From an uncultured Candidatus Rokubacteria bacterium (lineage in GTDB: Bacteria > Methylomirabilota > Methylomirabilia > Rokubacteriales > CSP1-6), in assembly GCA_963758635.1 (NCBI GenBank), contig CAVWWD010000005.1, positions 96,001 through 160,000 of the forward strand: a DNA stretch of 64,000 bases, read 5' to 3'. Below the pieces are notes generated by a model, which saw nothing but the letters and a program-made list of their open reading frames with translations, was not told the origin of the DNA and did no database searches. The first letter of the stretch is position 1, and each line of letters opens with the position of its first letter. The position numbers and the translations under genes are program-made. Shown one piece after another: positions 7,525 to 64,000 of the stretch.

Positions 7525-9258
7525 ATGACGGCCCGGGTCCTGCTCGCGGTGGCGGTGGTGGCCGCCGCGCTCTTCTTCGTCGGCCTCGACCAGCCGCCGT
7601 TCATCGATCCCCCCGAGGGCTTCCACGCCGCGGTGGCCCGCGAGATGCTCGCCGGCGGCGACTGGATCACGCCCCGCATCAACGGTGTCCGCTACTTCGA
7701 CAAGCCCCCGCTCCTCTACTGGCTGATGGCGACGGGCTTCGCCACGCTCGGGCTCTCGCCCGCGGTGGCGCGGCTCGCGTCGGTGCTCCCCGCGGTGGGC
7801 GTCGCCGTGGTCACCGCGTGGATCGGCCTCCGCCTGGGCGGGGCGCGCCTCGGGCTCCTCGCCGGGCTCATCGTCGCCGCGAACCTCGAGCTCTTCCTGT
7901 ACGCGCGCCTCGTCAAGCCGGACCTCCTCATGGTCCTGGCCATCGTCTGCGCGTTCGCGGCGTTCCTGGAAGCGTACGGCGTGGGCCGCCGGGGCGCGGT
8001 CCCGCTGTTCTACGCGAGCCTGGGCGCGGCCGCGCTCGCGAAGGACATCCTCGGGGCGATCGGGCCGCTCCTCGTCGTCGCGGTGTTCCTCGCCGTGACC
8101 GGGGAGCGCGCGCAGCTCGCCCAATGGCGCCCGTGGCACGGCCTCGCCGTCCTCGCCGCCGTGGTCCTGCCCTGGTACGGCGCCATGGAGATCGCCAACC
8201 CGGGGTTCCTCTGGTACACGGTCGTCGACAACCACGCGCTCAACATCGCGCAGCACCGCGTGTTCCCCGACGAGGACGTCCCCCTGGGCGCGCTGGAGTT
8301 CCTCGGCGTCACCGCGGTGGGGTTCTTGCCGTGGACGGCGGCGCTGCCGTGGGCGGTGTGGCGCGCGCTCCGGGGACCATGGGACTCGGTGGAGCGGCGG
8401 GCGTGGCTGCTCCTGGGGATGTGGACGACCCTCGTGCTCGGGGTCTTCACCCTCTCGCCGTTCAAGCTTCCGCACTACGGGCTGCCCGCGTTCCCCGCGA
8501 TGGCGCTCCTCGTGGCCAAGCTCTGGAACGACGTGCTGGACGGCGATCCGCCCGCCGTGCGCGCGATGCTCGTGCCCGCGCTCATCACGCTGATCGCCGT
8601 CGCCATCGCCGCGTACCTCGGGTCCGAGGGGCGGCTCGCGCTTCCGGGCGACGCGCTGTCCACCGTCAACGTCGCCACGCGGAACCTGGCCGCGCGCGGC
8701 CAGGACGCGCCGTTCGCCACCGCGGCGGCGATCCGCCCGATCCTCGGCACGCTCGCCCTGATCTTCGGCGCGGGCGCGGTGGCGGTGGCGGCGGCGCTGG
8801 CGCTCGAGCGGCTGCAGATCGGGCTCGGCGTGCTCCTCGCCGTGATGCTGGCGGGGCTGCCCGTCACGGTGCAGGGCGTGGCCGCGTTCGCGGAGAGCCG
8901 GTCGCTCCGGCCCCTCGCCGAGGCGGTGGCCCTGCGCGCCGGGCCCCGTGACGTGCTCGTGCACGAGGGGCCGCTCGAGAACAGCGCGTCGTGGCTCCTC
9001 GGCCTCCCGCGCGGGCGCGAGCCGGTGCGGATCGTGAACGGGCGCCAGTCGAACCTCGCGGTGGGCGCCACGTACCCGGAGGCGCGCGCGATCTTCTGGG
9101 ACGGCCGGCGCCTCGCCGAGAGCTGGCGCGGCGCCGAGCGCCTGTTCCTCATCTCCACGCTGCCGCCCGAGCGGAGCGCGACCCGCGATCTGCCTCCGGA
9201 CAGCGTCCACCTTCTCGCCGTCCGCGGCGGCCGCTGGCTCTACTCCAATCGGCAGTGA
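7525..9258 (+). CDS. ArnT/PMT-like (GT-C) membrane glycosyltransferase
   Basis: PPEG..AREM...DWITP..NG..YFDKPPLLYW; multi-TM; KLPHY motif. Confidence 0.85.
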   Translation: MTARVLLAVAVVAAALFFVGLDQPPFIDPPEGFHAAVAREMLAGGDWITPRINGVRYFDKPPLLYWLMATGFATLGLSPAVARLASVLPAVGVAVVTAWIGLRLGGARLGLLAGLIVAANLELFLYARLVKPDLLMVLAIVCAFAAFLEAYGVGRRGAVPLFYASLGAAALAKDILGAIGPLLVVAVFLAVTGERAQLAQWRPWHGLAVLAAVVLPWYGAMEIANPGFLWYTVVDNHALNIAQHRVFPDEDVPLGALEFLGVTAVGFLPWTAALPWAVWRALRGPWDSVERRAWLLLGMWTTLVLGVFTLSPFKLPHYGLPAFPAMALLVAKLWNDVLDGDPPAVRAMLVPALITLIAVAIAAYLGSEGRLALPGDALSTVNVATRNLAARGQDAPFATAAAIRPILGTLALIFGAGAVAVAAALALERLQIGLGVLLAVMLAGLPVTVQGVAAFAESRSLRPLAEAVALRAGPRDVLVHEGPLENSASWLLGLPRGREPVRIVNGRQSNLAVGATYPEARAIFWDGRRLAESWRGAERLFLISTLPPERSATRDLPPDSVHLLAVRGGRWLYSNRQ

Positions 9259-33037: not shown

Positions 33038-34207
33038 ATGCGCGGCATCTCCCAGCGAGTGCAGGGGTTCACCGAGTCGGTGATCCGCGAGATGACGCGC
33101 GTCAACAACCAGTACGGCGGCATCAACCTCGCCCAGGGCATGCCGAACTTCCCGCCGCCGCCGGAGCTGGTGCAGGCGGCGCACCGCGCGCTCGACGGCG
33201 ACTTCCATCAGTACGCGATCACCTGGGGCACGCCGAGCCTGCGTCAGGCCATCGCGGAGAAGTACCGCCGCTTCTACGGCATGGAGGTGGAGCCCGACCG
33301 CCACCTCACCGTGTGCTGCGGGTCCACGGAGACCATGCTCGCCACGCTCCTCGCCGTGCTCAATCCCGGCGACCAGGTCATCGTCTTCGAGCCCTTCTAC
33401 GAGAACTACGCGCCAGGATGCATCATCGCCGGCGCCGAGCCGATCTGGGTGCCCCTCGAGCCGCCCGACTTCTCGTTCGATCCCGACCGCCTGGCCCGGG
33501 CGGTGACGCCGCGCACGCGCGCCATCATCTTCAACAGCCCCAACAACCCCTCGGGCAAGGTCTTCTCCCGGGCGGACCTCCAGGTCATCGCCGACCTCTG
33601 CCTCGAGCACGACCTGGTCGCCATCACCGACGAGATCTACGAGCACATCGTGTACGACGGCCTCGGCCACACCCCGATCGCGACGCTGCCCGGCATGGCC
33701 GAGCGCACGGTCACGATCTCGGGGATCTCGAAGTCGTACTCGGTGACGGGGTGGCGGATCGGGTACGCCGTCGCGAATCCCGAGCTGTCGGTGGGGATCC
33801 GGCGGGCCCACGACTTCATCACGGTGGGAGCGCCGCACCCGCTCCAGGAGGCGGCCGTCACCGCGCTCCGGTTCCCCGACGCGTACTACACGTACCTGCG
33901 CGAGAGCTACCAGGCGCGCCGCGATCTGCTCTTCGGCCAGGTGGAGTCCGCGGGCTTCGTGGCGTGGAAGCCGAGGGGCGCGTACTACATCCTGACCAAC
34001 GTCGCCCACTTCATGAAGCAGCACGGCTGCGCCGACGACACCGAGTTCGCGATGTTCCTGATCAAGGAGATCGGCGTCGCGACCGTGCCCGGCTCCTCCT
34101 TCTACGCGCATCCCGAGCTCGGCCGGACGAAGATCCGGTTCTGCTTCCCGAAGACCGACGACATGCTGATCGAGGCGGGCCAGCGCCTGCAGAAGCTCGC
34201 CCGTTGA
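33038..34207 (+). CDS. PLP-dependent class I/II aminotransferase
   Basis: INLAQG, NSPNNPSG, TDEIYE, SKSYSVTGWRIG. Confidence 0.92.
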   Translation: MRGISQRVQGFTESVIREMTRVNNQYGGINLAQGMPNFPPPPELVQAAHRALDGDFHQYAITWGTPSLRQAIAEKYRRFYGMEVEPDRHLTVCCGSTETMLATLLAVLNPGDQVIVFEPFYENYAPGCIIAGAEPIWVPLEPPDFSFDPDRLARAVTPRTRAIIFNSPNNPSGKVFSRADLQVIADLCLEHDLVAITDEIYEHIVYDGLGHTPIATLPGMAERTVTISGISKSYSVTGWRIGYAVANPELSVGIRRAHDFITVGAPHPLQEAAVTALRFPDAYYTYLRESYQARRDLLFGQVESAGFVAWKPRGAYYILTNVAHFMKQHGCADDTEFAMFLIKEIGVATVPGSSFYAHPELGRTKIRFCFPKTDDMLIEAGQRLQKLAR

Positions 34208-34358
34208 CTGGCTGGTGCCGGCCGGCGGGCCAGCGCCTGCAGAAGCTCGCCCGTTGACTGGCTGGTGCCGGCCGGCGGGCCAGCGCCTGCAGAAGCTCGC
34301 CCGTTGACTGGCTGGTGCCGGCCGGCCGGCCAGCGCCTGCAGAAGCTCGCGCGTTGAC
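34174..34358 (+). repeat. 50-bp tandem repeat, about 3.7 copies, spanning a stop/start junction
   Basis: Unit GGCGGGCCAGCGCCTGCAGAAGCTCGCCCGTTGACTGGCTGGTGCCGGCC. Confidence 0.95.
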
Positions 34359-51698: not shown

Positions 51699-52999
51699 GT
51701 GAAGCGGACGCCGCGCGTCGCCGTGCTTACCCTCGCCCTGATGGCGGGGGTGGTCCTGTCGGCGCTCGCCGCCGCGCCCGCCCCCGTGTCGCTGATCGAG
51801 ATCGAGGGGGCCATCACCCCCGTCACCGTCCGGCTCGTGAGCATGGCGGTGGAGCGCGCCCAGGCCGAGCGCGCGCAGGCCCTGGTCCTCCAGCTCGACA
51901 CCCCGGGCGGCCTCGAGCGCTCGATGCGCTCCATCGTCCAGACCATCCTCAACGCCGAGGTCCCCGTCATCGTGTACGTGGGACCCACGGGGGCGCGCGC
52001 CGCCTCCGCCGGGGTCTTCCTCACCATCGCCGGTCACGTCGCCGCCATGGCCCCCGCCACCAACATCGGGGCCGCGCATCCCGTGGCCGTCGGCGGCCAG
52101 ATGGACAAGGAGATGGCCAAGAAGGTCGAGAACGACGCCGCGGCCTTCGCACGCTCGATCGCGAGCGAGCGGAACCGCAACGTGGAGTGGGCCGAGAAGG
52201 CGGTCCGCTCCTCCGTGTCGGCCACCGAGCGCGAGGCGGTGAAGCTCAAGATCGTCGACCTCGTGGCCGACAACGTGCCCGACCTCCTCGCCAAGGTCGA
52301 CGGGCGCACGGTGAAGACGACGAAGGGCGTGGTGACGCTCCGCACCAGGGACGCGCCGGTCAAGCGCATCGAGGTGCGCTTCCGCGACCGGTTCCTCGCC
52401 CTGATCACCGACCCGAACGTCGCCTACGTGCTGATGATGGTCGGCATGCTGGGCCTCTTCTTCGAGCTCTCCAACCCCGGGGTGATCCTGCCCGGCATCA
52501 TCGGGGGCATCAGCATCATCCTCGCGTTCTTCGCCTTCCAGAGCCTGCCCATCAACTGGGCCGGGCTCCTCCTCATCCTCTTCGGCGTCGCGCTGCTCAT
52601 CGCCGAGATCAAGGTGGTGAGCCACGGGGTGCTGACCATCGGCGCCGTCGTCGCGATGGTCCTGGGCTCGCTCATGCTCTACGACGCGCCCGAGACCGGC
52701 CTCCGGATCTCCTGGTACGTGATCATCCCCACCGTCGGCAGCACCGCCGCCCTCATGGCCTCGCGGTGTCGTTCGGGATGCGCGCCCTCTACGGCCGCCC
52801 GATCACGGGCGCCGTCGGCATGGTCGGGGAGGCCGCGGTCGTGCGGGAGCCGCTCGACCCCGAGGGCCAGGTGCAGGTGCACGGCGAGCTGTGGCGGGCC
52901 GTCTCGGAGGACGGGCCGGCGGCGGCGGGGGAGACGGTGCGCATCACCGGGGTCGACGGGCTCACCCTGAAGGTGGTTCACGCCGGCGAGCGGCGCTAG
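51699..52999 (+). CDS. nfeD: NfeD/StoP membrane serine protease (frameshift near 52757)
   Basis: LDTPGG, ARAASAG, IGAAHPV; C-terminal GELWRA OB domain in a shifted frame. Confidence 0.88.
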
Positions 53000-53029
53000 C
53001 CCGCGGCCGCGGCAGATCGGGGGACAGGC

Positions 53030-53833
53030 ATGGGCTTCGAGATGCTGTTCGGCATCGTGCCGGTGGTGATCATCGCCCTCTTCGTCATCGGGACGTCGGT
53101 GCGGATCCTCCGCGAGTACGAGCGGGGGGTGATCTTCCGCTTCGGCCGCCGGGCCCGCGCCGTGGTGAACCCGGGCGGCGACGGGTCGGGGCCGGGCCTC
53201 CTCCTCCTCGTGCCGTTCATCGACAAGATGGTGAAGGTGAGCCTGCGCACGATCACGATGGACGTGCCGCCGCAGGACGTCATCACCCGCGACAACGTGT
53301 CGGTGAAGGTGAACGCGGTGATCTTCTTCCGGGTCCTCGACGCGGCCAAGGCGGTGATCAGCGTCGAGGACTACCTCTACGCCACGTCCCAGATCGCCCA
53401 GACCACGCTGCGCAGCGTGCTCGGTCAGCAGGAGCTCGACGACCTGCTCTCGTCGCGCGACAAGATCAACGCCGAGCTCACGCGGATCATCGACGAGCAC
53501 ACCACGCCGTGGGGGATCAAGGTCGCCACCGTCGAGGTGAAGAACGTCGACCTGCCCCAGGACATGCAGCGCGCAATGTCCAAGCAGGCGGAGGCCGAGC
53601 GCGAGCGCCGGGCCAAGGTCATCAACGCCGACGGCGAGTTCCAGGCCGCGGCCAAGCTGTCCGAGGCGGCCGACGTGCTCTCCCGCTACCCGATCGCGAT
53701 CCAGCTTCGCTACCTGCAGACCATGCGCGAGATCGCCTCGGAGCGGAACACCACCACGTTCTTCCCCGTCCCCGTCGATCTCCTGGGCTCGCTCAGGAGC
53801 GCGTTCGGCGCGCCCGATCCCCCACGGAGCTGA
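53030..53833 (+). CDS. SPFH/stomatin-like (slipin) protein
   Basis: [31 protein letters not shown]. Confidence 0.93.
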
Positions 53834-53888
53834 CGCGCAAACCGCGCTTGTGAGCGTCGGCGGGGCCGAGTACAATACGGCTCGCTTC

Positions 53889-53964
53889 GGGGGGTTAGCT
53901 CAGTTGGGAGAGCGCGGCGTTCGCAACGCCGAGGTCGAGGGTTCGAATCCCTTACCCTCCACCA
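53889..53964 (+). tRNA. tRNA-Ala(CGC)
   Basis: Cloverleaf; G3:U70 pair; anticodon loop TTCGCAA; GGTTCGAATCC T-arm; encoded CCA. Confidence 0.95.
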
Positions 53965-54002
53965 TGTGAGCGGCGCGGCGGCCCGCGAGGTCGCCGCTTC
54001 AT

Positions 54003-54092
54003 CGTGAAGGCCGGGACAGGAGTCCCGGCCTTCGTCATGTCCGGATGTGGCACCGCGCCGTGAAGGCCGGGACGCGGGTCCCGGCCTTCGTC
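54003..54092. repeat. Two identical-stem hairpins downstream of the tRNA
   Basis: CGTGAAGGCCGGGAC-N4-GTCCCGGCCTTCGTC at 54003-54036 and 54059-54092. Confidence 0.85.
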
Positions 54093-54190
54093 GTCTTCGA
54101 GGGCGACCCGGTGGCGCAGCGGCGCGCGTTGTCCTATCATGTGGCCCGTTTCTCAACCGCCCCGCTCGCGGGGCTCGACGGAGGCTTCGA

Positions 54191-54547
54191 ATGAGCGTCG
54201 CCACGAGCAACGAGGCGCGACCGCGGGTCGTCCGATGGCTGGAGGAAGGACAGGGACAGCTGAGCGCCGTCCTCGCGATCCTCCACGACTACGATCGCGT
54301 GCAGGCCGCGGCCCAGATGGCGGAGCAGGAGTGCGAGCGGCTACGCGCCTTCGTCTACGAGAACGAGCGGCTGCGGAACCAGATCGAGGGGATGGAGAGC
54401 GAGTGCGGGAAGCTCCGCGAGGAGATCCAGAACCTGCGCGGGCTCGGCGAGCGGCACCTCCGAGAGCGCGAGGACATCGCGGCCTCGCAGTCGCAGCTCA
54501 TGAACGACGTGCTCCTCCGGCTCCGCGGAGAGCAGCACCGCTCATGA
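54191..54547 (+). CDS. Hypothetical coiled-coil protein
   Basis: E/R/Q/L-rich heptad pattern. Confidence 0.65.
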   Translation: MSVATSNEARPRVVRWLEEGQGQLSAVLAILHDYDRVQAAAQMAEQECERLRAFVYENERLRNQIEGMESECGKLREEIQNLRGLGERHLREREDIAASQSQLMNDVLLRLRGEQHRS

Positions 54548-54620
54548 CCCTCGCAGAATGCGGAACCGCCACGGGCCTCTACAGTCCCACCGGGCGGCAC
54601 TAGTCTGATGCGCGGGGCTC
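54545..54620 (+). repeat. Family B repeat, copy 5
   Basis: Its first 3 nt (TGA) are the stop codon of the upstream gene. Confidence 0.92.
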
Positions 54621-54641
54621 GTTAGCCCGAGCGGATCCGGC

Positions 54642-55130
54642 ATGGGCGAGGAGGCGTTCTCGCCGGAGCAGCATCGCCTCGCCGCCGAGGAGCGCTACTT
54701 CGACGACCTCCGCGTCGGGGAGCGCTTCTTCATCCCGTCGCGCACGATGACCGAAGCGCACTTCTCCGCCTTCCAGGCGGCCTCGGGCGACAACCATCCG
54801 ATCCACTACGACCGGCCGTACTGCCAGGCCCGCGGCCACCGCGACCTCCTCGCCCACGGCCTGCTCGTCGCCGCCCAGGCCGCCGCGGGGGCGGGGATCT
54901 TCCCGCACGTGATCGGCGACGCGCTGGTCGCGTTCCTCGGACAGTCCTCGACCTTCCTCAAGCCCGTCTACGTGGGGGACACGATCTACCCGATGCTGAC
55001 GATCACCGAGCTCCGGCCCGGGCGCACCACCGGGGTCGTCGTGATGCGCGCCACCATCCACAATCAGGTGAAGGATCTGGTCATGGACGGCGAGCACCGG
55101 TACCTCCTCCGTCGCCGCCCCGGATCGTGA
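54642..55130 (+). CDS. MaoC-family dehydratase
   Basis: SGDNHPIHYD, AHG, FLKPVYVGDT. Confidence 0.88.
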   Translation: MGEEAFSPEQHRLAAEERYFDDLRVGERFFIPSRTMTEAHFSAFQAASGDNHPIHYDRPYCQARGHRDLLAHGLLVAAQAAAGAGIFPHVIGDALVAFLGQSSTFLKPVYVGDTIYPMLTITELRPGRTTGVVVMRATIHNQVKDLVMDGEHRYLLRRRPGS

Positions 55131-55155
55131 GCGCGTGAGACGGAGGCTGGCCGGG

Positions 55156-55542
55156 TCAGGGAGCGTCGACGGAGTTCTGCGTGAACGAGACGACGTTGAT
55201 GCGATAGTCGGCGCCGCGACGGGGCACCGGCACCGCGAAGTACGCCTTGCCCCCCGGCGTGACGTTGCCGTAGACCCAGCCGAGCGACTCGCCCGTGACG
55301 GCGCCCGACCCATCGAGCACCTCGACCTTCAGCCGCACGCCGCTCACGAGATAGCGCGGCGACTCGTTGTGCACGTAGCCCTCGACCGCCCAGCCGCCGC
55401 GCGGGATCGCCTCCTTGCTGTACTCGATTCGGAATATCTGCTCGGACGATCCCTGGGCCCCGGCCGGCCCCGCGTGGAGCAGGGCCGCGAGGACGGCGAC
55501 AGCGAGGCCGGCCGGGAGGAGCGGACGGAGAAGGGTGATCAT
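55156..55542 (-). CDS. Secreted FxLYD-like domain protein
   Basis: Signal peptide; VEGYVHN...VRLKVEVLDGSG...PGGKAYF. Confidence 0.65.
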   Translation of the reverse strand: MITLLRPLLPAGLAVAVLAALLHAGPAGAQGSSEQIFRIEYSKEAIPRGGWAVEGYVHNESPRYLVSGVRLKVEVLDGSGAVTGESLGWVYGNVTPGGKAYFAVPVPRRGADYRINVVSFTQNSVDAP

Positions 55543-55770
55543 GGAGCGCTCCCTGGCCCGCGGGCAGACGAGCGTGCTTCGTTCACGGCACGAGCCGGCC
55601 GTGCCGGCTCCGGCGAGCAGGATACCGTAGACACACCGCCGCCGGCGAAAACCTCTGCGTCCGGGACGGGCACGTCGGGAAGGGACACGGGCGGCAGCGC
55701 GGCGCCGGGAGGGGCGGGGGATCGGTCGCGGCGCGCGGTCACACCGCCGCGGCGCCGGACGCGAGGGCGG

Positions 55771-55890
55771 TCAGGCGCCCTTCTTCGCGGCGGCCCGCGC
55801 CGGGCAGCGCTTGTGCATCCACACCGAGCCGAGCTTCACGTGGTTGCCGTTCTTCCGGATGCGTCCCTTGCACTTCGGGCACGTCCCCAT
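55771..55890 (-). CDS. 39-aa basic zinc-finger micro-protein (CxxC-x18-HxxC)
   Basis: MGTCPKCKGRIRKNGNHVKLGSVWMHKRCPARAAAKKGA*; GAAGGAG RBS; GC3-rich codons; below the ORF-track cutoff. Confidence 0.75.
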   Translation of the reverse strand: MGTCPKCKGRIRKNGNHVKLGSVWMHKRCPARAAAKKGA

Positions 55891-55964
55891 CACGATCTCC
55901 TTCGCGCGGATGTCGCGACCGTCGAAGGCCGCGGCGATCGAGTATACACGAGAGCGAGGGAGCG

Positions 55965-56297
55965 GTGAGCGCGGACTGCGTGTTCTGCCGGATCGTGGAG
56001 CGCCGATCGCCGGCCGAGGTCGTGTACGAGGACGACGAGGTCATGGCCTTCCGGGATCTCTACCCGAAGGCGCCCGTGCACCTGCTGATCATCCCGAAGC
56101 GGCACATCGAATCGATCGCCGCGCTGGAGACGACCGACACCGCCGTCGTCGGCCACTGCGTCCAGGTGGCGAAGCTGCTCGGAGAGCAGACCGGCTACGC
56201 CGAGCGCGGGTATCGCATCGCGTGCCACTCGGGCCCCGAGGGCGGGCAGGTCGTGTACCACTTGCACTTCCACTTCATGGCCGGACGCCGGAGCTGA
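55965..56297 (+). CDS. HIT-family nucleotide hydrolase (Hint-like)
   Basis: DCVFC, PKAPVHLLIIPK, GQVVYHLHFH. Confidence 0.9.
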   Translation: MSADCVFCRIVERRSPAEVVYEDDEVMAFRDLYPKAPVHLLIIPKRHIESIAALETTDTAVVGHCVQVAKLLGEQTGYAERGYRIACHSGPEGGQVVYHLHFHFMAGRRS

Positions 56298-56348
56298 CTC
56301 GCCACCGCCGGCGTCCAGGCCAACCGCCGCGCGGGATCCCGCCCGGCG

Positions 56349-57963
56349 TCAGGTGCCGCTGGCCGCGGCGCCCTGGTCTCCGCCGCGTGTCACGGGCTTG
56401 AACTCGAGCGGCAGTCCGGCGTTCGCCCAGCCCCCGAGCCCGCCCTTCAGCACCCGCACGTCCGCGTAGCCGAGCCGCCGGAGCCGCTGGACGGCTCCGG
56501 CGCTGGCGCGCTCGTCCCTCGCGGTGCAGTACGCGATCACGGGCCGGCCGGGCTCGATCGACGGTGGCGCGGTCCCGCGGTCGAGGTCTTCGCTCGACAC
56601 GTGTACGGCCCCGGGGATCCGAAACGGGCTCGTGTCGTAGACGAGCTTGGACCGCACGTCCAGGATGGCCGGCGCGGCCCCGCGCTCGTAGAGGCGCACC
56701 ACCTCGGACGCCTCGATGCGATGCCGGTTCTGCCGCCAGCGACGCCCCGCGACGAGCGCGACGCCGCCCAGTCCGGCGAGGACGACGGCGCCGGTGGCGG
56801 CGCTCCAGGGAAATGGCCGAGGCGGCGGATTCTTGATCTTCTCCTCCGCCTCGGCGAGGGCCCGGTTGACGTTCGGGCAGGTCGGGCATGAGCCGGTTGG
56901 ACTCGCGAAACCCCACCGCGGCGCCCTTGTAGTCGCCGGCGAACAGCCTGGCGAGGCCGGAGAACCACGCGTCGTTGAACGGGCTCTTGCCGTTCGGCGT
57001 GACCGGGGTGGCCTGGAGGAAGTCCCGGACGGCATCCGACGGAATCACGAAGTTGAAGCCCTGGACGATACTGCCCTCCGGTCCGGGCCCCAGCGAGACG
57101 AACGTGAGGACGCCGATCACCTCGCCCTTCTCGTTGATCACCGGCCCGCCCGAGTTGCCCCACGCCGCGGGCGCGTCGGTCTGGATGACGGGCTGGTTCT
57201 GGACGTCCTGCTTGAACCCGGACACGGCGCCGTTCGTCACCGAGGCCTCGACCTTGGCGGAGGCGTTGAGGAGCTCGTGGGTCAGCACCACGCCCGGAAA
57301 GCCGAGGATCCGGATCGGATCGCCGATCTTCAGCGTCCGCGACAGCCCGAGGGCGAACACGGGCAGGTCGGACGCCTCCACCTGGAGCAGCGCGAGGTCG
57401 CGGCCGGACATCGCGCCAGGCCCGGCCTCGACGGCGACGGGCGGGCTGTACTTCGCGACCTTCGCGGGAAGCCGGATGCCGTTGGACATGAGCAGCGAGA
57501 CCGACGGGCTCAGCTCCACCTTCGCCCGCGGCATCACGCGATCGAGCAGCTCGCGCTTGATCTGCTCCTCGGCGTCGGGACGCGCGCCCGGAGCGAGCCC
57601 GCGCCGTGCCAGCGCGTCGGGAAGGCACGCAGTCATCACCGCCCGCTGCGCCTGCTGATTCACCAGCCACTGGGGCGGCATATGGGCGGGCTGCACGACG
57701 TGGGCGTTGGTCACCACCCAGCCGCTGGTGTCGACGAACCAGCCCGTGCCCGTCTCGCGGAAGGGCGGGGGAGTCACGGTGACCTGGCCCGCGCCGCAGT
57801 CGAGCGTGATCTCGGCGCCCACCTCGGAGATCACGAGGACCGTGGCGGGCTTGGCGCGGAGGATCGTCTCCTGGACCGACAGCATGTCCGCCCCGCGCGC
57901 CTCGGCATCGCCGAGGATCGCCAGGCCCGCGACGAGAGCGGCGCGCCACCACGCCCGGGGCAT
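56349..57963 (-). CDS. Trypsin-like (HtrA-type) serine protease fused to a TM helix and a C-terminal rhodanese domain (frameshift near 56875)
   Basis: Signal peptide; TNAHVV, DLALL, IQTDA...GNSGGP; TM; ILDVR, IPGA, AYCT, LKGGLGGW. Confidence 0.82.
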
Positions 57964-58084
57964 GGCGCGGATTCTACTCCGAGGTCGCGAAGGAACGCTC
58001 GGCTTCAGCGGGCGAGGCTCGCACCGCGATTCCGTGGGCACGCGGCGCGCCGTCTCGCCCAGTGATTCAGCGATCTCGTTCCGG

Positions 58085-58124
58085 AAAAAGAACCGGGCTC
58101 CAGGGGCGAGCCCTGGAGCCCGGT
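58085..58124 (-). terminator. Rho-independent terminator of the repeat-protein gene
   Basis: 14-bp perfect stem (58092-58105 / 58111-58124) followed by TCTTTTT on the minus strand. Confidence 0.85.
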
Positions 58125-58148
58125 GGTGATGCAGGACTGACGCTCGAC

Positions 58149-59385
58149 TTACTTCAGGATCTCGATCGCGGCCTTGGCCTTCTGGCTGGCCAGGCTCGTG
58201 TTGCCGGCCTTGCAAGCCGCCTCGGCCTCCTTCACCAGCGACGCCGCCTTGGAGATGTCACCACGCGGAGCCTCCTGAGCGGACCGGGGCGCTTCCTGCT
58301 GGCTGCGCGGAGCCTGCTGCACCGAGCGGGGCGCCTCCTGCGTGCTACGGGGCGCTTCCTGCTGGCTCACCCGCGGAGCCTCCTGAGCGGACCGGGGCGC
58401 TTCCTGCTGACTGCGCGGAGCCTGCTGCACCGAGCGGGGCGCCTCCTGCGTGCTACGGGGCGCTTCCTGCGCGCTGCGCGGGGCTTCCTGCTGGCTCACC
58501 CGCGGAGCCTCCTGGGCGGACCGGGGCGCTTCCTGCTGACTGCGCGGAGCCTGCTGCACCGAGCGGGGCGCCTCCTGCGTGCTACGGGGCGCTTCCTGCG
58601 CGCTGCGCGGGGCTTCCTGCTGGCTCACCCGCGGGGCCTCCTGGGCGGACCGGGGCGCTTCCTGCTGACTGCGCGGAGCCTGCTGCACCGAGCGGGGCGC
58701 CTCCTGCGTGCTACGGGGCGCTTCCTGCGCGCTGCGCGGGGCTTCCTGCTGGCTCACCCGCGGGGCCTCCTGAGCGGACCGGGGCGCTTCCTGCTGACTG
58801 CGCGGAGCCTGCTGCACCGAGCGAGGCGCCTCCTGCGTGCTGCGGGGCGCTTCCTGCGCGCTGCGCGGGGCTTCCTGCTGGCTCACCCGCGGGGCCTCCT
58901 GGGCGGACCGGGGCGCTTCCTGCTGACTGCGCGGAGCCTGCTGCACCGAGCGGGGCGCCTCCTGCGTGCTACGGGGCGCTTCCTGCGCGCTGCGCGGGGC
59001 TTCCTGCTGCGCTCACCCGCGGAGCCTCCTGGGCGGAGCGGGGCGCTTCCTGCTGACTGCGCGGAGCCTGCTGCACCGAGCGAGGCGCCTCCTGCGACGA
59101 CCGCGGAGCCTCCTGGGCGGAGCGGGGCGCTTCCTGCTGACTGCGCGGAGCCTGCTGCACCGAGCGAGGCGCCTCCTGCGAGGACCGCGGAGCCTCCTGG
59201 ATGCGAGCACCGGCGAGCGAGCGCGGCGCCTGCACATCCTGGACGCGAGACACCTGTTGCTTCTGCTGCAGCATCGACTTCGCCGTGCTCACCTCGGCCG
59301 GGCAGCTGTTGTCAGCCGAACCCGTGGTGGCCGAGAGGGACACGGCCATCAGACCACTGAGAACCACCGCCAGCGACTTCTTCAT
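58149..59385 (-). CDS. Secreted QEAPR-repeat protein (~411 aa after correcting a 1-bp insertion near 59010)
   Basis: Signal peptide MKKSLAVVLSGLMAVSLSATTGSA; SCPAE; 44 repeat units; helical C-terminus with AACKAG; AAAGGAAGG RBS. Confidence 0.85.
58263..59202 (-). repeat. Coding minisatellite: 21/24-bp units arranged in a 129-bp higher-order repeat
   Basis: SVQQAPR-SQQEAPR-SAQEAPR-VSQQEAPR-SAQEAPR-STQEAPR block repeated 5 times plus partial blocks. Confidence 0.95.
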
Positions 59386-59513
59386 GCGTCCCTTCCTTTC
59401 GCAGCTGGTTGAGGAACCATCTCAGCCGACTCGCACTTCCGGCCGCCCCCCACGGACCGCCGGTCGCGGCTGAGAACCGCACTCGTGTTCTTCATGACGA
59501 CCACGGCCCCTAG

Positions 59514-59529
59514 AGCAGGAGCCATGCCA
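59514..59529 (-). promoter_or_regulatory. Sigma-54 (-24/-12) promoter
   Basis: TGGCATGGCTCCTGCT with GG and GC at the canonical spacing, about 130 bp upstream of the repeat gene. Confidence 0.7.
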
Positions 59530-59559
59530 CACGGGGGAAGTGGGAGAAGAAAGTTGCTC

Positions 59560-59572
59560 AATCACATGGTTA
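59560..59572. promoter_or_regulatory. IHF-like site
   Basis: AATCACATGGTTA, one mismatch to WATCARNNNNTTR, just upstream of the -24 element. Confidence 0.5.
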
Positions 59573-59992
59573 CGGGCCCATCAGCTTGTTTCCCTGCGGT
59601 GGGCGGCGCGGCTTTTTGCCCCGTGCCCCGCCCGAGCCCCGCCCGGCAGAATGCCCGTCGTGCCCAAGGATGGTCGGGACGGGCAAGCGCGGGTCGGGCA
59701 AGCTGCTTTGACCGCCGGACAGGCTCGTGTCCTGCTCGCGGGAAGTGCGTGTGGACCCGTCGGTCGCTCCCGTTCGGCGCATCCGCGATGTGACCGTCAT
59801 GCAAGGTTTGTACAGTCACGAGAGAGCGGCGTGCAGAGGAGGAGCCCTGGACAGATCTACCCGTTCGAGCCTCGCTAGGCGGGGGATGCTCGGTAAATGG
59901 GCCGCGTAGCAGCGAGTTTTGGGGTATACTGCCTCCGTTCGCCAACTTCCAGGAGGGCTCCGTATGACGCCGACCGTCGTGAGGAGGTACGC

Positions 59993-60870
59993 GTGAAGAA
60001 GGCGCCGAGGACCAAGGGTCAGGCCGCCCGGCTGACGCGACCCCACAAGGCGGCGGCCGCCGCCCCACCGCCCGCCCGCCCCGTCAAGCTCCGGCTGGAT
60101 CTCCTGCTCGTCGAGCGCGCCTTGGCCCCGAGTCGCGAGAAGGCGGCACGCCTCATCCTGGCCGGCTCCGTCATGGTCGACGGGCAGCGCGTGGACAAGG
60201 CGGGGACGCCGATCGACACGCGTGCCCGCGTCGAGGTGGTCTCGCGAGAGAAGTACGTGAGCCGAGGCGGCGACAAGCTCGACCACGCCATCGCCACGTT
60301 CGGCATCGCGCCCGCCGGCCGCATCTGCCTCGACGTGGGCGCCTCCACCGGAGGGTTCACCCACTGCCTGCTCGAGGCGGGCGCCAAGCGCGTGTACGCC
60401 GTGGACGTCGGCCAGGGCCAGCTCGATCCCTCGCTGCGCGCCGATGGTCGCGTGGTGGTGATGGAGCGCACGAACGCGCGCCAGCTCAGCGTGGAGAGCT
60501 TCCCCGAGCTCCCGCAGGTGGCCACCGTGGACGTGTCGTTCATCTCGCTGGAGAAGGTGCTCCCCGCCGTGCAGAGCGTTCTGTCGTTCGACGGCGAGGC
60601 GGTGATCCTCGTGAAGCCGCAGTTCGAGGTGGGCAAGGGCCAGGTCGGCAAGGGGGGGTCGTGCGCGATCCCAGCCAGCACCGCGCCGTGCTCGAGCGGC
60701 TCGCGCGCTACTCGATCCTGCACGCCTGGCACGTGCGCGGCGTGACGGCATCGCCGCTCAAGGGCCCCAAGGGCAACCGCGAGTTCTTCATGCACCTGGC
60801 CCTCACCGGGAAGACCCCGGCGCAGCTCGGGGCGCTCCTCGACCGGGTCGCCGCGGAGGAGCCTGCGTGA
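59993..60870 (+). CDS. tlyA: TlyA rRNA methyltransferase (frameshift near 60655)
   Basis: RLDLLLV, YVSRGGDKL, DVGASTGGFT, DVSFISL, VKPQFE, GPKGNREF. Confidence 0.92.
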
Positions 60871-61725
60871 AGCGTATCGGCGTCCTCGCCAAGACCGACC
60901 GCGAGGAGGCCCGGCAGGTCGTTCCCCAGCTCCTCGAGTGGTGCGCGGCCCGCGGCGTCACCGCCGTCCTCGAGAAGGAGACCGCGGGGCTGTGCCCGGA
61001 TCGCGCCATCTCCGTCGTCCTCAAGCCCGAGCTGCCCGGGGCACGTCGATCTGCTGCTGGTGCTGGGCGGCGACGGCACGCTGCTCTCCATGGCCCGCCT
61101 CGTCGGCGACCTCGGGGTGCCGATCCTCGGCGTCAACCTCGGCGGGCTGGGGTTCCTCACCGCCCTCACCGTGGAAGAGCTGTTCCCGGCCCTCGAGGCC
61201 TGCCTGCGTGGGGAGATGGTGATCGATGAGCGGATGATGCTGGCGGCCGCCGTCGTGCGTCAGGGCGAGCGGCTGACCGAGTACGTCGCGCTGAACGACG
61301 TGGTCATCACCAAGTCCGCGATGAGCCGCATCATCAATCTGGAGGTGGCGGTGGACGGCAAGCTGGCCACCGCGTACCGGGCCGACGGGCTCATCGTCTC
61401 CACGCCCACCGGCTCCACGGCCTACTGCCTGTCCGCGGGCGGGCCCATCGTGTTCCCCACCATGGACGCGGTCGTCCTCACGCCGATCTGCTCGCACACG
61501 CTCACCAACCGTCCGATCGTGCTGCCGGGCGGCGTCGCCATCGAGGTGACGCTCCTGTCCGACCAGGACGTGGCCCTCACCCTCGACGGGCAGGTGAGCC
61601 TCGCGCTCAAGCGCTCGGACATCGTCGAGATCCGTCCCGCCGCGGCCCGCATCCGGCTCCTCCGGCCGCCCCAGAAGCACTTCTTCTCGGTGCTCCGCAC
61701 CAAGCTGAAGTGGGGCGAGCGGTAG
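60867..61725 (+). CDS. nadK: NAD kinase (frameshift near 61040)
   Basis: LGGDGT, GVNLGGLGFL, LNDVV, TPTGSTAY.LSAGGP. Confidence 0.92.
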
Positions 61726-61794
61726 ATCCCTCCGTCTCCATCTCGATACGCTTGAGGCCGACCTCCCGGGCGACGTAGCATCGCGGGCGCGGCC

Positions 61795-63513
61795 ATGCTC
61801 ACCGAGCTCCGCATCCGGAACCTCGCCGTCATCGAGAGACGTCACCGTGCCCTTCGGCCCCGGCCTGAACGTCCTCACCGGGGAGACGGGAGCGGGGAAG
61901 TCGATCGTGATCGACGCCCTGCTCCTGATCGGGGGCGCGCGGGCGCAGCCCGAGCTGATCCGCTCGCAGGCCGCCGCCGCCTCGGTCGAGGCGGTCTTCG
62001 AGATCCCGCCGGCGAGCCCGGCCACCGAGGTGCTGGAAAGGGCGGGGCACGGAGCGCCCGATGGCGTCCTCGTGATCCGGCGGGAGATCGCGCGATCCGG
62101 GCGCCACCGCGTCTTCGTCAACGATTCGGCGGCGACGGTGGCGCTGATCGATCGGCTCGGCGAGTGCCTCCTCGAGCTGCACGGCCAGCACGAGCACCAG
62201 CGCCTCATGGAGCCGGCGCGGCAGCTCGCCGTGCTCGATCGCTTCGCCGGCTGCGCGCCGGACGTCTCGGCCCTCGGCGGTCTCGTGCGCGCATGGACGG
62301 AGGCGCGGGCCGAGCTGACTCGCGTCGAGAGCGAGGCGCGGGAGGACGCGCGCCAGGAAGACCTCTACCGCTTCCAGCTCTCCGAGATCGACGCCGCGCG
62401 TCTCGAGGATGGCGAGGAGGACGCGCTCCGCGCCGAGCGCCGCCGCCTCCAGCACGCCGAGCGCATCGGCTCCATCCTGCGCGAGGCCTCCGCGCTGCTC
62501 TACGACGACCGCGACGCCGCCGCGGCCCGCCTGGCGCGCGCGGCCGGCCTGCTCGGCGAGCTCGAGCGCGATGGATCCCGACGCCGCGGGCGCCGCGGAG
62601 AGCGTGGAGGCCGCCGCGACCCACGTCGAGGAGGCCGTCGGTCGGGTGCGCGCGCTCCGCGACCGGGCCACCCTCGATCCCGAGCGCCTGGAGGAGATCG
62701 ACGCGCGTCTCGACACCATCCTCAAGCTGAAGCGGAAGTACGGGGAGAGCGAGGCCGCCATCGCTCGCTACCGCCAGGAGGTGGCCGAGCGGCTCGGGCG
62801 TCTCACCCGCCACGACGAGGTCGTCGCCGAGATGGCGGGCGCGCATCGACGACCTCGCGGGCCGGGCCCTCCGCGCGGCGGACGCGCTCACCGCGGTCCG
62901 CACGGAGGCCGCGGCGCGGCTCGAGCGGCTGATCCAGAAGGAGCTGCGCGGGCTCGGCATGGAGCACGCGCGCTTCGCCGTCGCCTTCCGGCGGGAGGCC
63001 GCCGGGCCCGGCGAGCTCGCGCCGAGGGCGGGCGGCGCCCGCGTGGGTGCGCGGGGGGCCGAGACCGTGGAGTTCCTCTTCTCCGCCAACCCCGGCGAGG
63101 AGCCGCGCTCCCTGGCCCGCGTGGTCTCGGGGGGCGAGCTGTCGCGGACGATGCTCGCGGTCAAGACCGTCCTCGCCGCGGCCGACGACGTGCCGGTCCT
63201 CATCTTCGACGAGGTCGACGCGGGCATCGGCGGGCGCGTGGCCGACGTGATCGGCGACAAGCTGCGGGAGACCTCGGTCGGCCGGCAGGTGCTCTGCGTC
63301 ACCCATCTCGCCCAGATCGCCGCGCGCGCCGGCCAGCACATCGTGGTGGACAAGCGCGTGAGCCGGGGCGTCACGCGCACCTCGGTCCGCCGCGTCGCGG
63401 CCGCCGAGCGCGTGGAGGAGCTGGCGCGGATGCTGGGCGGCGAGCGCATCACCGACGCCACGCGCCGCCACGCGCGCGAGCTCTACCGCGGCAGCCAGGG
63501 GGGACGCGGATGA
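61795..63513 (+). CDS. recN: DNA repair protein RecN (frameshifts near 61838, 62570 and 62840)
   Basis: LTGETGAGKS, HGQHEHQ, SGGELSR, FDEVDAGIGG, VTHLAQIA. Confidence 0.92.
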
Positions 63514-63570
63514 CGGCGGCGCGGCCCGCATCTGTCCCTGGCCGCGAGGCCTGGTGCTAAGATAGCCTTC

Positions 63571-64000
63571 GTGATCAACGCCCTGATCCGCGCGGTCTTC
63601 GGCACCAAGCACGAGCGGGACGCCAAGCGCATGCGTCCGGCCGTCGCGGCCATCAACGAGCTGGCGTCCGCGCTCGAGGCCGTGGACGACGGGGCCCTCC
63701 GGGCGAGGACGGGGGAGTTCCGCAAGCGGCTCGCCGACGGCGCGGAGCTCGACGATCTCCTCGTCGAGGCGTTCGCCGCCTGCCGCGAGGCGGCGCGTCG
63801 CACCGTCCGGATGCGGCACTTCGACGTGCAGCTCATGGGCGGGATGATCCTGCACCAGGGCACGATCGCGGAGATGGCCACGGGCGAGGGCAAGACGCTC
63901 GTGGCCACGCTCCCGGCGTACCTGAACGCGCTGCCCGGCCTCGGCACCCACATCGTGACCGTCAACGACTACCTGGCCCGGCGCGACGCGCAGTGGATGG
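63571..64000 (+). CDS. secA: Preprotein translocase SecA (5' part, runs off the window)
   Basis: [46 protein letters not shown]. Confidence 0.95.

Follow-up and report, generated by a model that had tools for sequence, protein, structure and literature searches.

Is the product of the repeat-loop gene analyzed here cut into many copies of a short peptide, or does it remain whole? The gene lies in a stretch of 64,000 nucleotides (hereafter the window) from an uncultured Rokubacteria bacterium, and the features of the locus are collected in Table 1. A sequence-only reading had offered two hypotheses, namely a polyprotein cut after each Arg, and an uncut Ser/Thr-rich hydrophilin or matrix protein. 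Of the readings compared here, we prefer a multi-copy peptide precursor to an uncut multivalent chain and to a plain hydrophilin. The prediction that the exported product is such a precursor, cut after Arg or Lys, is tentative and almost evenly poised.

Table 1. Features of the repeat-loop locus (window positions)
Feature	Position	Strand	Remarks
HtrA-like serine protease gene	56349..57963	-	frameshifted in assembly; associated neighbour, putative role
Intrinsic terminator	58092..58124	-	14-bp stem and U-tail
Repeat-loop gene	58149..59385	-	411 aa, read across a 1-base assembly error at 59010
C-terminal helical hairpin with Cys391	58149..58262	-	predicted packing on helix 1
Array of 44 S-x-Q-[EQ]-A-P-R units	58263..59202	-	six-unit 129-bp higher-order repeat; predicted disordered
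First, family-type unit VQDVQAPR (Ser-Arg before) and conserved SLAGAR spacer	59203..59244	-	
Cap helix 1 with Cys28	59233..59304	-	helix 30-51 predicted in near-identical relative P0004
Predicted Sec signal peptide, residues 1-24	59314..59385	-	by sequence pattern
Sigma-54 -24/-12 promoter	59515..59529	-	sequence pattern
IHF-like site	59560..59572	+	one mismatch
GGC-N5-GCC palindrome pair (59610-59620, 59645-59655)	59610..59655		predicted enhancer-binding-protein sites

The array makes up 313 of the 411 residues, and Cys28 and Cys391 are the sole cysteines, as the sequence-only reading had claimed. Its unit counts were reproduced exactly (13 SAQEAPR, 8 SVQQAPR, 8 SQQEAPR, 6 VSQQEAPR, 6 STQEAPR, 2 SSQEAPR, and 1 IQEAPR), the total of 44 being an assembly reading whose exact number short-read contigs do not confirm. 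It had overlooked a 45th, family-type unit, VQDVQAPR, and the SLAGAR spacer, which precede the array. TRF reported the 129-bp higher-order repeat at 6.3 copies (score 1433). In the assembly an extra base at 59010 splits the gene into ORFs of 138 and 265 aa. This is an assembly error, as had been suspected: a contig crosses the position without the extra base in three of four runs, the fourth has no bridging contig, and the extra base was seen in none of the four (contigs over 58930-59130), bearing in mind that contigs crossing 59010 may derive from sister copies of the array. Since these contigs lack the base and further 1-base excesses occur in the assembly (at 58071 and 59585, along with a frame break in nadK), the gene is intact. 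Elsewhere in the window, nfeD, tlyA, nadK, and recN (51699-63999) look frameshifted, which fits long-read assembly errors, and a 50-bp unit repeated 3.7 times at 34174-34358, unique in the genome, copies the end of an aminotransferase-like gene, its stop codon included, and may be an assembly stutter. Contigs from RNA runs span the gene in two runs of one study (contig-level data), but they extend over its flanks and were therefore rejected as a sign of expression. No family peptides were found in soil metaproteomics supplements (two files of PMC9361346 and one short file of PMC13370013), and Rfam gave no match.

The gene is a member of an unnamed, lineage-wide Rokubacteria family. A profile matched 122 of the 126 genomes of the window's family and none of 73 elsewhere in the phylum; in a smaller genome set the figures were 22/24 and 0/16. 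These tallies take in the unpublished genomes G009, G023, and G100, and no conclusion hangs on these alone. When the non-repeat N- and C-terminal parts were used as queries, they retrieved 55 and 33 proteins of the same build, respectively. Pfam, NCBIfam, and PHROGs yielded no family above cut-off, and ESM Atlas returned solely unnamed Methylomirabilota/Rokubacteria clusters or low-complexity labels, which bears out the earlier statement that no named family was recognisable. No description of the family was found among the literature listings searched. Against 1.84 billion representatives a profile yielded 392 matches, with both cysteine helices present in 62 of 144 newly listed ones and no enzyme fusions among the best 150 of the 392. 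Three long matches proved on inspection to be two unrelated repeat proteins and one frameshifted family member. Most genome loci (67/80) were titled Rokubacteria or Methylomirabilota; most of the remaining 13 share neighbour genes and are probably mislabelled. The gene thus marks the main sampled family of Rokubacteria, which are abundant, uncultured soil bacteria, almost without exception. Divergent members also occur (P0229, P0224, P0216, and P0228), with 10-residue aromatic units (e.g., TNFPDVAAPR) or QMPR/QLPR/QTPR ends, and in these Pro-Arg alone is invariant.

The repeat grammar was derived from 55 distinct complete members, leaving out fragments, frameshifted genes, and genes containing N. 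Array length varies, a point which the sequence-only reading had raised: relatives carry 2-44 in-frame units (median 16) of 6-10 residues that vary at the N-side. The consensus unit is [GSTA]-Q-D-[VI]-Q-[AS]-P-R, of which the window lineage has a variant in which Asp is gone from P6 and Glu has appeared at P4, with neutrality kept. Net charge is zero in 829 of 930 units, and only 2 of 8,286 unit residues are aromatic or His. When the unit filter is lifted, Arg comes directly after Pro in 946/987 cases. P-R/K precedes G, S, T, or A in 905/930 units, and Pro in none. PMC2790309 gives P-R/G as a thrombin-type site (VVPR/GVNL; slashes mark boundaries). Dibasic pairs are lacking in the mature window protein, and KR or RR occurs in 2/55 loops.

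The same register extends to positions outside the repeat. Of the 48 distinct junctions before the first unit, which are not products of repeat duplication, 42 end in small-[K/R] (26 K, 16 R); several junctions are near-duplicates from kin. The pattern holds in 36 of the 40 junctions that are not spacer-derived and, among 50%-cluster representatives, at 72% of 86 junctions, while the adjoining positions are only 0-2% basic. A SLAGAR-type spacer, found in 53/55 members, also ends in R or K. Thus n units come with n+1 basic boundaries, and every unit, the first included, is bracketed by small-[K/R] and then a small residue. The window series runs S-R/VQDVQAPR/SLAGAR/IQEAPR. Arg is fixed (99%) at unit ends, and K and R interchange where the residue would stay on the cap.

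Within single genes, the units showed a median pN of 0.04 and pS of 0.47 at the four codons not fixed by the filter, and of the 36 genes in which pS exceeded 0 (38 examined), 35 had a pN/pS under 0.5; the window gene is the least uniform (pN 0.28, pS 0.58). Judging from these substitution patterns, the exact unit sequence, beyond its composition, is under purifying selection.

Paralogs of one genome tend to share a dialect. On contig C3 of the window genome there is a paralog whose caps are 36% and 52% identical to those of the main gene and which has the same rare QEAPR/VQQAPR units, including QSQQEAPR and QSVQQAPR. This paralog (G000:C3:562977-563738; locus L161, about 7980-8740) has its own sigma-54 site and several assembly frameshifts, and sits within a cluster of USP, CBS, cytochrome c, and NrfHA-like genes. 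Across 18 multi-copy genomes, picked from profile-matched genomes and loci, the unit similarity of main gene and paralog was 0.768 against 0.584 when permuted (0/20,000 permutations). With one genome per genus the values were 0.80 and 0.57, and the tracking persisted without the window genome; for seven paralogs from one neighbouring clade of the cap tree (36 columns, four rows without a cap left out) p was 0.0016. C-caps are 39-64% identical in 16 of 18 main-paralog pairs, and only 4 of 21 pairs have any identical 21-mer in common; recent gene conversion behind the sharing is unlikely, since shared DNA 21-mers are so rare. Within one genus no tracking was observed (p=0.16), so that dialects follow genus and not species, and in four genomes the own main gene ranks only 6-11 of 18 for the paralogs. 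Kin are not independent in any count of the analysis. The shared units point to one unit-reading partner per lineage, or to old gene conversion followed by selection, and the unit sequence serves as a genus marker readable from genomes.

The protein is predicted to be exported. By pattern, 53 of 55 relatives have a basic start, a hydrophobic core, and a small-x-small site, and none of the 55 has a Tat motif or lipobox. AlphaFold2, run on a 17-sequence alignment of short members, placed helices at 30-51, 103-121, and 125-139 (pLDDT about 85-89; pTM 0.42), with a loop pLDDT under 50. Residues 24-140 align structurally onto compact three-helix bundles (e.g., Z 6.7, rmsd 2.0, 59/62 residues). All structural matches are generic (best Z 8.4, rmsd 3.0, 66 aligned); VIA returned generic bundles alone, and Foldseek nothing at E<=0.001. 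In this model both protein ends are predicted to pack into one three-helix bundle, and a disulfide is predicted because exactly two cysteines occur in 53/55 complete members. The earlier picture of a cysteine-clamped helical hairpin thus keeps its clamp and its packed ends and loses its two-helix form, and conservation and modelling support an exported protein with an expandable loop that is predicted to be disordered.

The claim of a stand-alone, monocistronic sigma-54 unit is supported as well: the -24/-12 site, the IHF-like site, and the terminator were located, and the pattern is conserved. A sigma-54 pattern lies upstream of 41/54 members versus 3.7% of control windows, an IHF-like site accompanies 19 of 41 relatives (1% in controls), and an rpoN domain was found in the genome. 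The enhancer pair upstream of the promoter had been overlooked; GGC-N5-GCC palindromes, often paired, occur in 38/43 promoters compared with 23% of controls. Because only 3 of 429 loose sigma-54 sites of the genome carry the strict enhancer pattern, the motif distribution suggests that the activator is near-dedicated. The same enhancer 11-mer is present at G000:C3:542656-542770, 99 bases upstream of a sigma-54-like promoter and before a short unknown ORF, possibly a second target of the same activator.

Which enzyme might cut the loop was asked of the neighbourhood and of the genome, which is 87% complete. The main gene copy lies between HIT and tlyA-nadK-recN. Among 100 loci, duplicates included, a tandem M16 peptidase pair is found upstream in 68 and an HtrA-like protease directly downstream in 39. 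Read from its sequence, this neighbour has a C-terminal membrane segment and a rhodanese-like domain; it is HtrA-like by both sequence and model, is family-specific, and lacks PDZ; a large insertion and the C-domain are helical, and the S1 pocket is unusual. Family genomes have 1-3 copies, and a search of 16 other genomes of the order at E<=1e-25 returned none; one of its paralogs comes after a second M16 pair (L107, L108). The HtrA-like neighbours have Pro/Ala/Val/Asn at what we take, from alignment, to be chymotrypsin positions 189/190/216/226. The trypsin-type Asp189 is absent in 27/27 aligned neighbours (Pro 22, Ser 3, Glu 1, Ala 1) and in all seven S1 proteases found in the genome. Invariant Asn226, Glu204, and Asp227 might confer an unusual specificity on the neighbour, and HtrA cleaves after aliphatic residues according to PMC6509562.

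Neither clostripain nor any exported Arg-specific protease was found in the 87% complete genome; the gingipain search ran without a positive control. The sole Arg/Lys-type enzyme seen was an oligopeptidase B-like protein below the model cut-off, and enzymes of this type are cytoplasmic. Two subtilisins were set aside as processors, there being nothing that links them to the gene. The M16 pair was likewise rejected as a dedicated processor, as it adjoins tlyA in gene-less sister-family genomes and is missing from the window locus. Its first member has a lipoprotein-like signal (e.g., L039:2080-4872, minus strand), and the pair is conserved beside HIT and tlyA across the order. Known bacterial peptide signals have a receptor, transporter, or modifying enzyme beside the gene; none recurred among the scanned neighbours.

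Taken together, the n+1 basic boundaries, exact-sequence selection, free copy number, and shared dialects are most simply read as a multi-copy precursor. In the mechanism that we propose, the predicted disulfide-closed three-helix cap would hold the disordered loop, and a protease would cut it after each Arg or Lys. Each chain would thereby yield a genus-specific peptide of 7-10 residues with a Pro-Arg end, in dozens of copies, to be bound as a ligand by one common partner, either a receptor or an enzyme. Such a partner would account for paralogs within a genome retaining a common unit. The sigma-54 promoter and its own enhancer pair would switch on bulk production, and a stress or low-oxygen trigger is suggested because paralogs sit in stress-gene clusters: many lie among USP, CBS, HSP20, RtcB-archease, and PFK genes, others among unrelated genes. 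In favour of the precursor we also count the Ala-Pro-Arg core of the bacterial thiovarsolins. Against it stand the lack of an Arg-specific exported protease or linked receptor among those found, a neighbour without the trypsin aspartate, net-neutral units almost free of aromatic residues and His that would suit a polymer, dialects at genus rather than species level with several paralogs not best-matched, and the monocistronic sigma-54 arrangement, which is typical of bulk structural proteins such as pilin. The register, the unit selection, and the paralog sharing thus speak indirectly for the polyprotein hypothesis, and a fitting exported protease was not found in the 87% complete genome.

A bolder version of the precursor reading would see a hormone-like system new to bacteria, in which Sec-exported polyproteins, clamped in the manner of proinsulin by a disulfide-linked helical cap, would be cut at single basic residues by a lineage-specific protease, freeing dozens of genus-specific Pro-Arg peptides, and several paralogs, each under a different stress promoter, would send one and the same signal to one receptor. 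We consider this full scheme speculative and unlikely. If the loop is cut, a Gram-negative bacterium would possess a secreted multi-copy precursor of the eukaryotic pheromone or neuropeptide type, whose genus-level dialects could be recognised in genomes and traced by mass. Left uncut, the product would be a zwitterionic polymer of natural origin, closed into a ring and strictly conserved in its motif. In either case the predicted peptides can be tested directly in soil. Their calculated [M+H]+ values are 758.379 (SAQEAPR), 785.426 (SVQQAPR), 815.401 (SQQEAPR), 914.469 (VSQQEAPR), 788.390 (STQEAPR), and 574.331 (SLAGAR), and 870.443 for GQDVQAPR, the unit that is commonest in the family.

The strongest competitor, which we judge unlikely, is a protein left intact in the periplasm or matrix, as a disordered, multivalent chain closed into a ring. 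Each [KR]-x-Q-D-V-Q-A-P-R stretch would then be a binding motif for one shared partner or for other copies of the chain, in the manner of a linker or scaffold. Exact-sequence selection and paralog sharing are explained equally well by such a chain, and the neutral, aromatic-free units, the cap and cysteine pair conserved in 53/55, the own promoter and terminator, and the failure to find a fitting protease all suit it. However, neighbouring motifs would adjoin, with one basic residue common to both, cut sites are a simpler reading of the free K/R swap at the first junction and of the basic spacer end, and no partner gene is linked.

Improbable, in our estimate, is that the protein acts through its composition instead of its sequence, as a hydrophilin-like or matrix component that shields the envelope from drying or other stress and may be O-glycosylated. 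The mature window protein has a GRAVY of -1.36, the loop is modelled as disordered, and the stress-gene company of the paralogs (USP, CBS, HSP20, RtcB) would fit such a role. Hydrophilins have Gly over 6% and a hydrophilicity index over 1; the window protein surpasses the second value and, with 0.8% Gly, falls far below the first, and only 17 of 55 relatives surpass both. Amino acids are kept while synonymous sites diverge, and paralog units track the genome, which composition alone would not require. Ser and Thr are absent from 454/930 units, 19 of 55 loops have less than 5% of them, and O-glycosylation-type Ser/Thr-rich repeats are therefore not a family trait. The second hypothesis of the sequence-only reading is weakened accordingly in its Ser/Thr-rich wording, and survives in an uncut, sequence-specific form.

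More doubtful still is a CpxP/ZraP-like periplasmic regulator or protease bait, whose cap would bind a sensor or the neighbouring HtrA-like protease and whose loop, as substrate or decoy, would signal by being cut. The protease and the gene have the same distribution in 41 genomes, the same two family members lacking both; the protease is present in 47/48 further family genomes, apart from being directly downstream at the loci counted above. HIT and the M16 pair are immediate neighbours in three sister-family genomes, with neither gene nor protease between them, so both were added there in the window's family. Yet many family-core genes would show the same distribution, the protease is located elsewhere in many genomes, a terminator separates the two genes, the Val/Ile preferred by HtrA is missing from most window units, and no recurring sensor kinase lies nearby.

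That the array is an assembly expansion or neutral minisatellite has almost nothing left to recommend it and is largely refuted at the family level, for despite the 1-base assembly errors, the identity of 129-bp block copies 0 and 2, and the few units of short-read relatives (P0004), in-frame arrays recur in 55 relatives, their units are under strong purifying selection, and synonymous changes distinguish four of five full 129-bp copies.

How does the family compare with known systems? The T4 gp5 C-terminal triple beta-helix (PF22178) gives sub-threshold matches in some relatives through its eight-residue period (E 3e-5, 24.5 bits versus a cut-off of 30.9), whereas the family has a Pro per unit, units of 6-10 residues, and a loop predicted to be disordered. 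ZraP, CpxP, and Spy, together with E. coli Asr, are small stress proteins, helical or disordered, that are exported; zraP is transcribed under sigma-54, and Asr is a repeat protein that is cleaved. ZraP/CpxP/Spy models of Pfam and NCBIfam found no match in eight family proteins at E up to 0.5, and the Rokubacteria proteins differ in their expandable array and in having no linked two-component system. With the hydrophilin/LEA-type stress proteins (PMC10816898) the family has high hydrophilicity, predicted disorder, and paralogs in stress clusters in common, and it differs in its selected exact sequence, its Gly-poor composition here, its predicted folded disulfide cap, and its predicted export.

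Closer in sequence is the thiovarsolin precursor VarA, a bacterial protein with a repeated Ala-Pro-Arg core, which the window protein has in common with it; VarA (PMC6511847) has a leader and five units, in contrast to the predicted Sec signal and up to 44 units of the window family. The NCBIfam model NF033878 reached at best 13 bits against a cut-off of 35 (E 0.092) in one relative among eight proteins. YcaO (PF02624) was not found in the 87% complete genome, a control matching in 5/14, and YcaO-TfuA tailoring genes were absent from the scanned neighbours.

In yeast, MF-alpha1 and MF-alpha2 are paralogs with one common mature peptide. The criteria for fungal KEX2-processed repeat proteins (KEPs) comprise a signal peptide with no membrane segment, three or more similar motifs that together cover more than 15% of the protein, and KR/RR/KK separators. 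KEPs and alpha-pheromone precursors have a signal peptide, such as is predicted for the window protein by pattern, and, like it, a compact array of near-identical units that takes up most of the protein and varies in copy number (PMC6339444). The 44 units of the window protein go well beyond the motif number and coverage; its separators are single basic residues and never dibasic. Further differences are the bacterial host and the conserved two-cysteine helical cap that encloses the array. By analogy, the family likely follows the design of a fungal pheromone precursor. What is new here is the boundary register, the within-gene selection on units, the lineage unit shared by paralogs, and the conserved enhancer pair.
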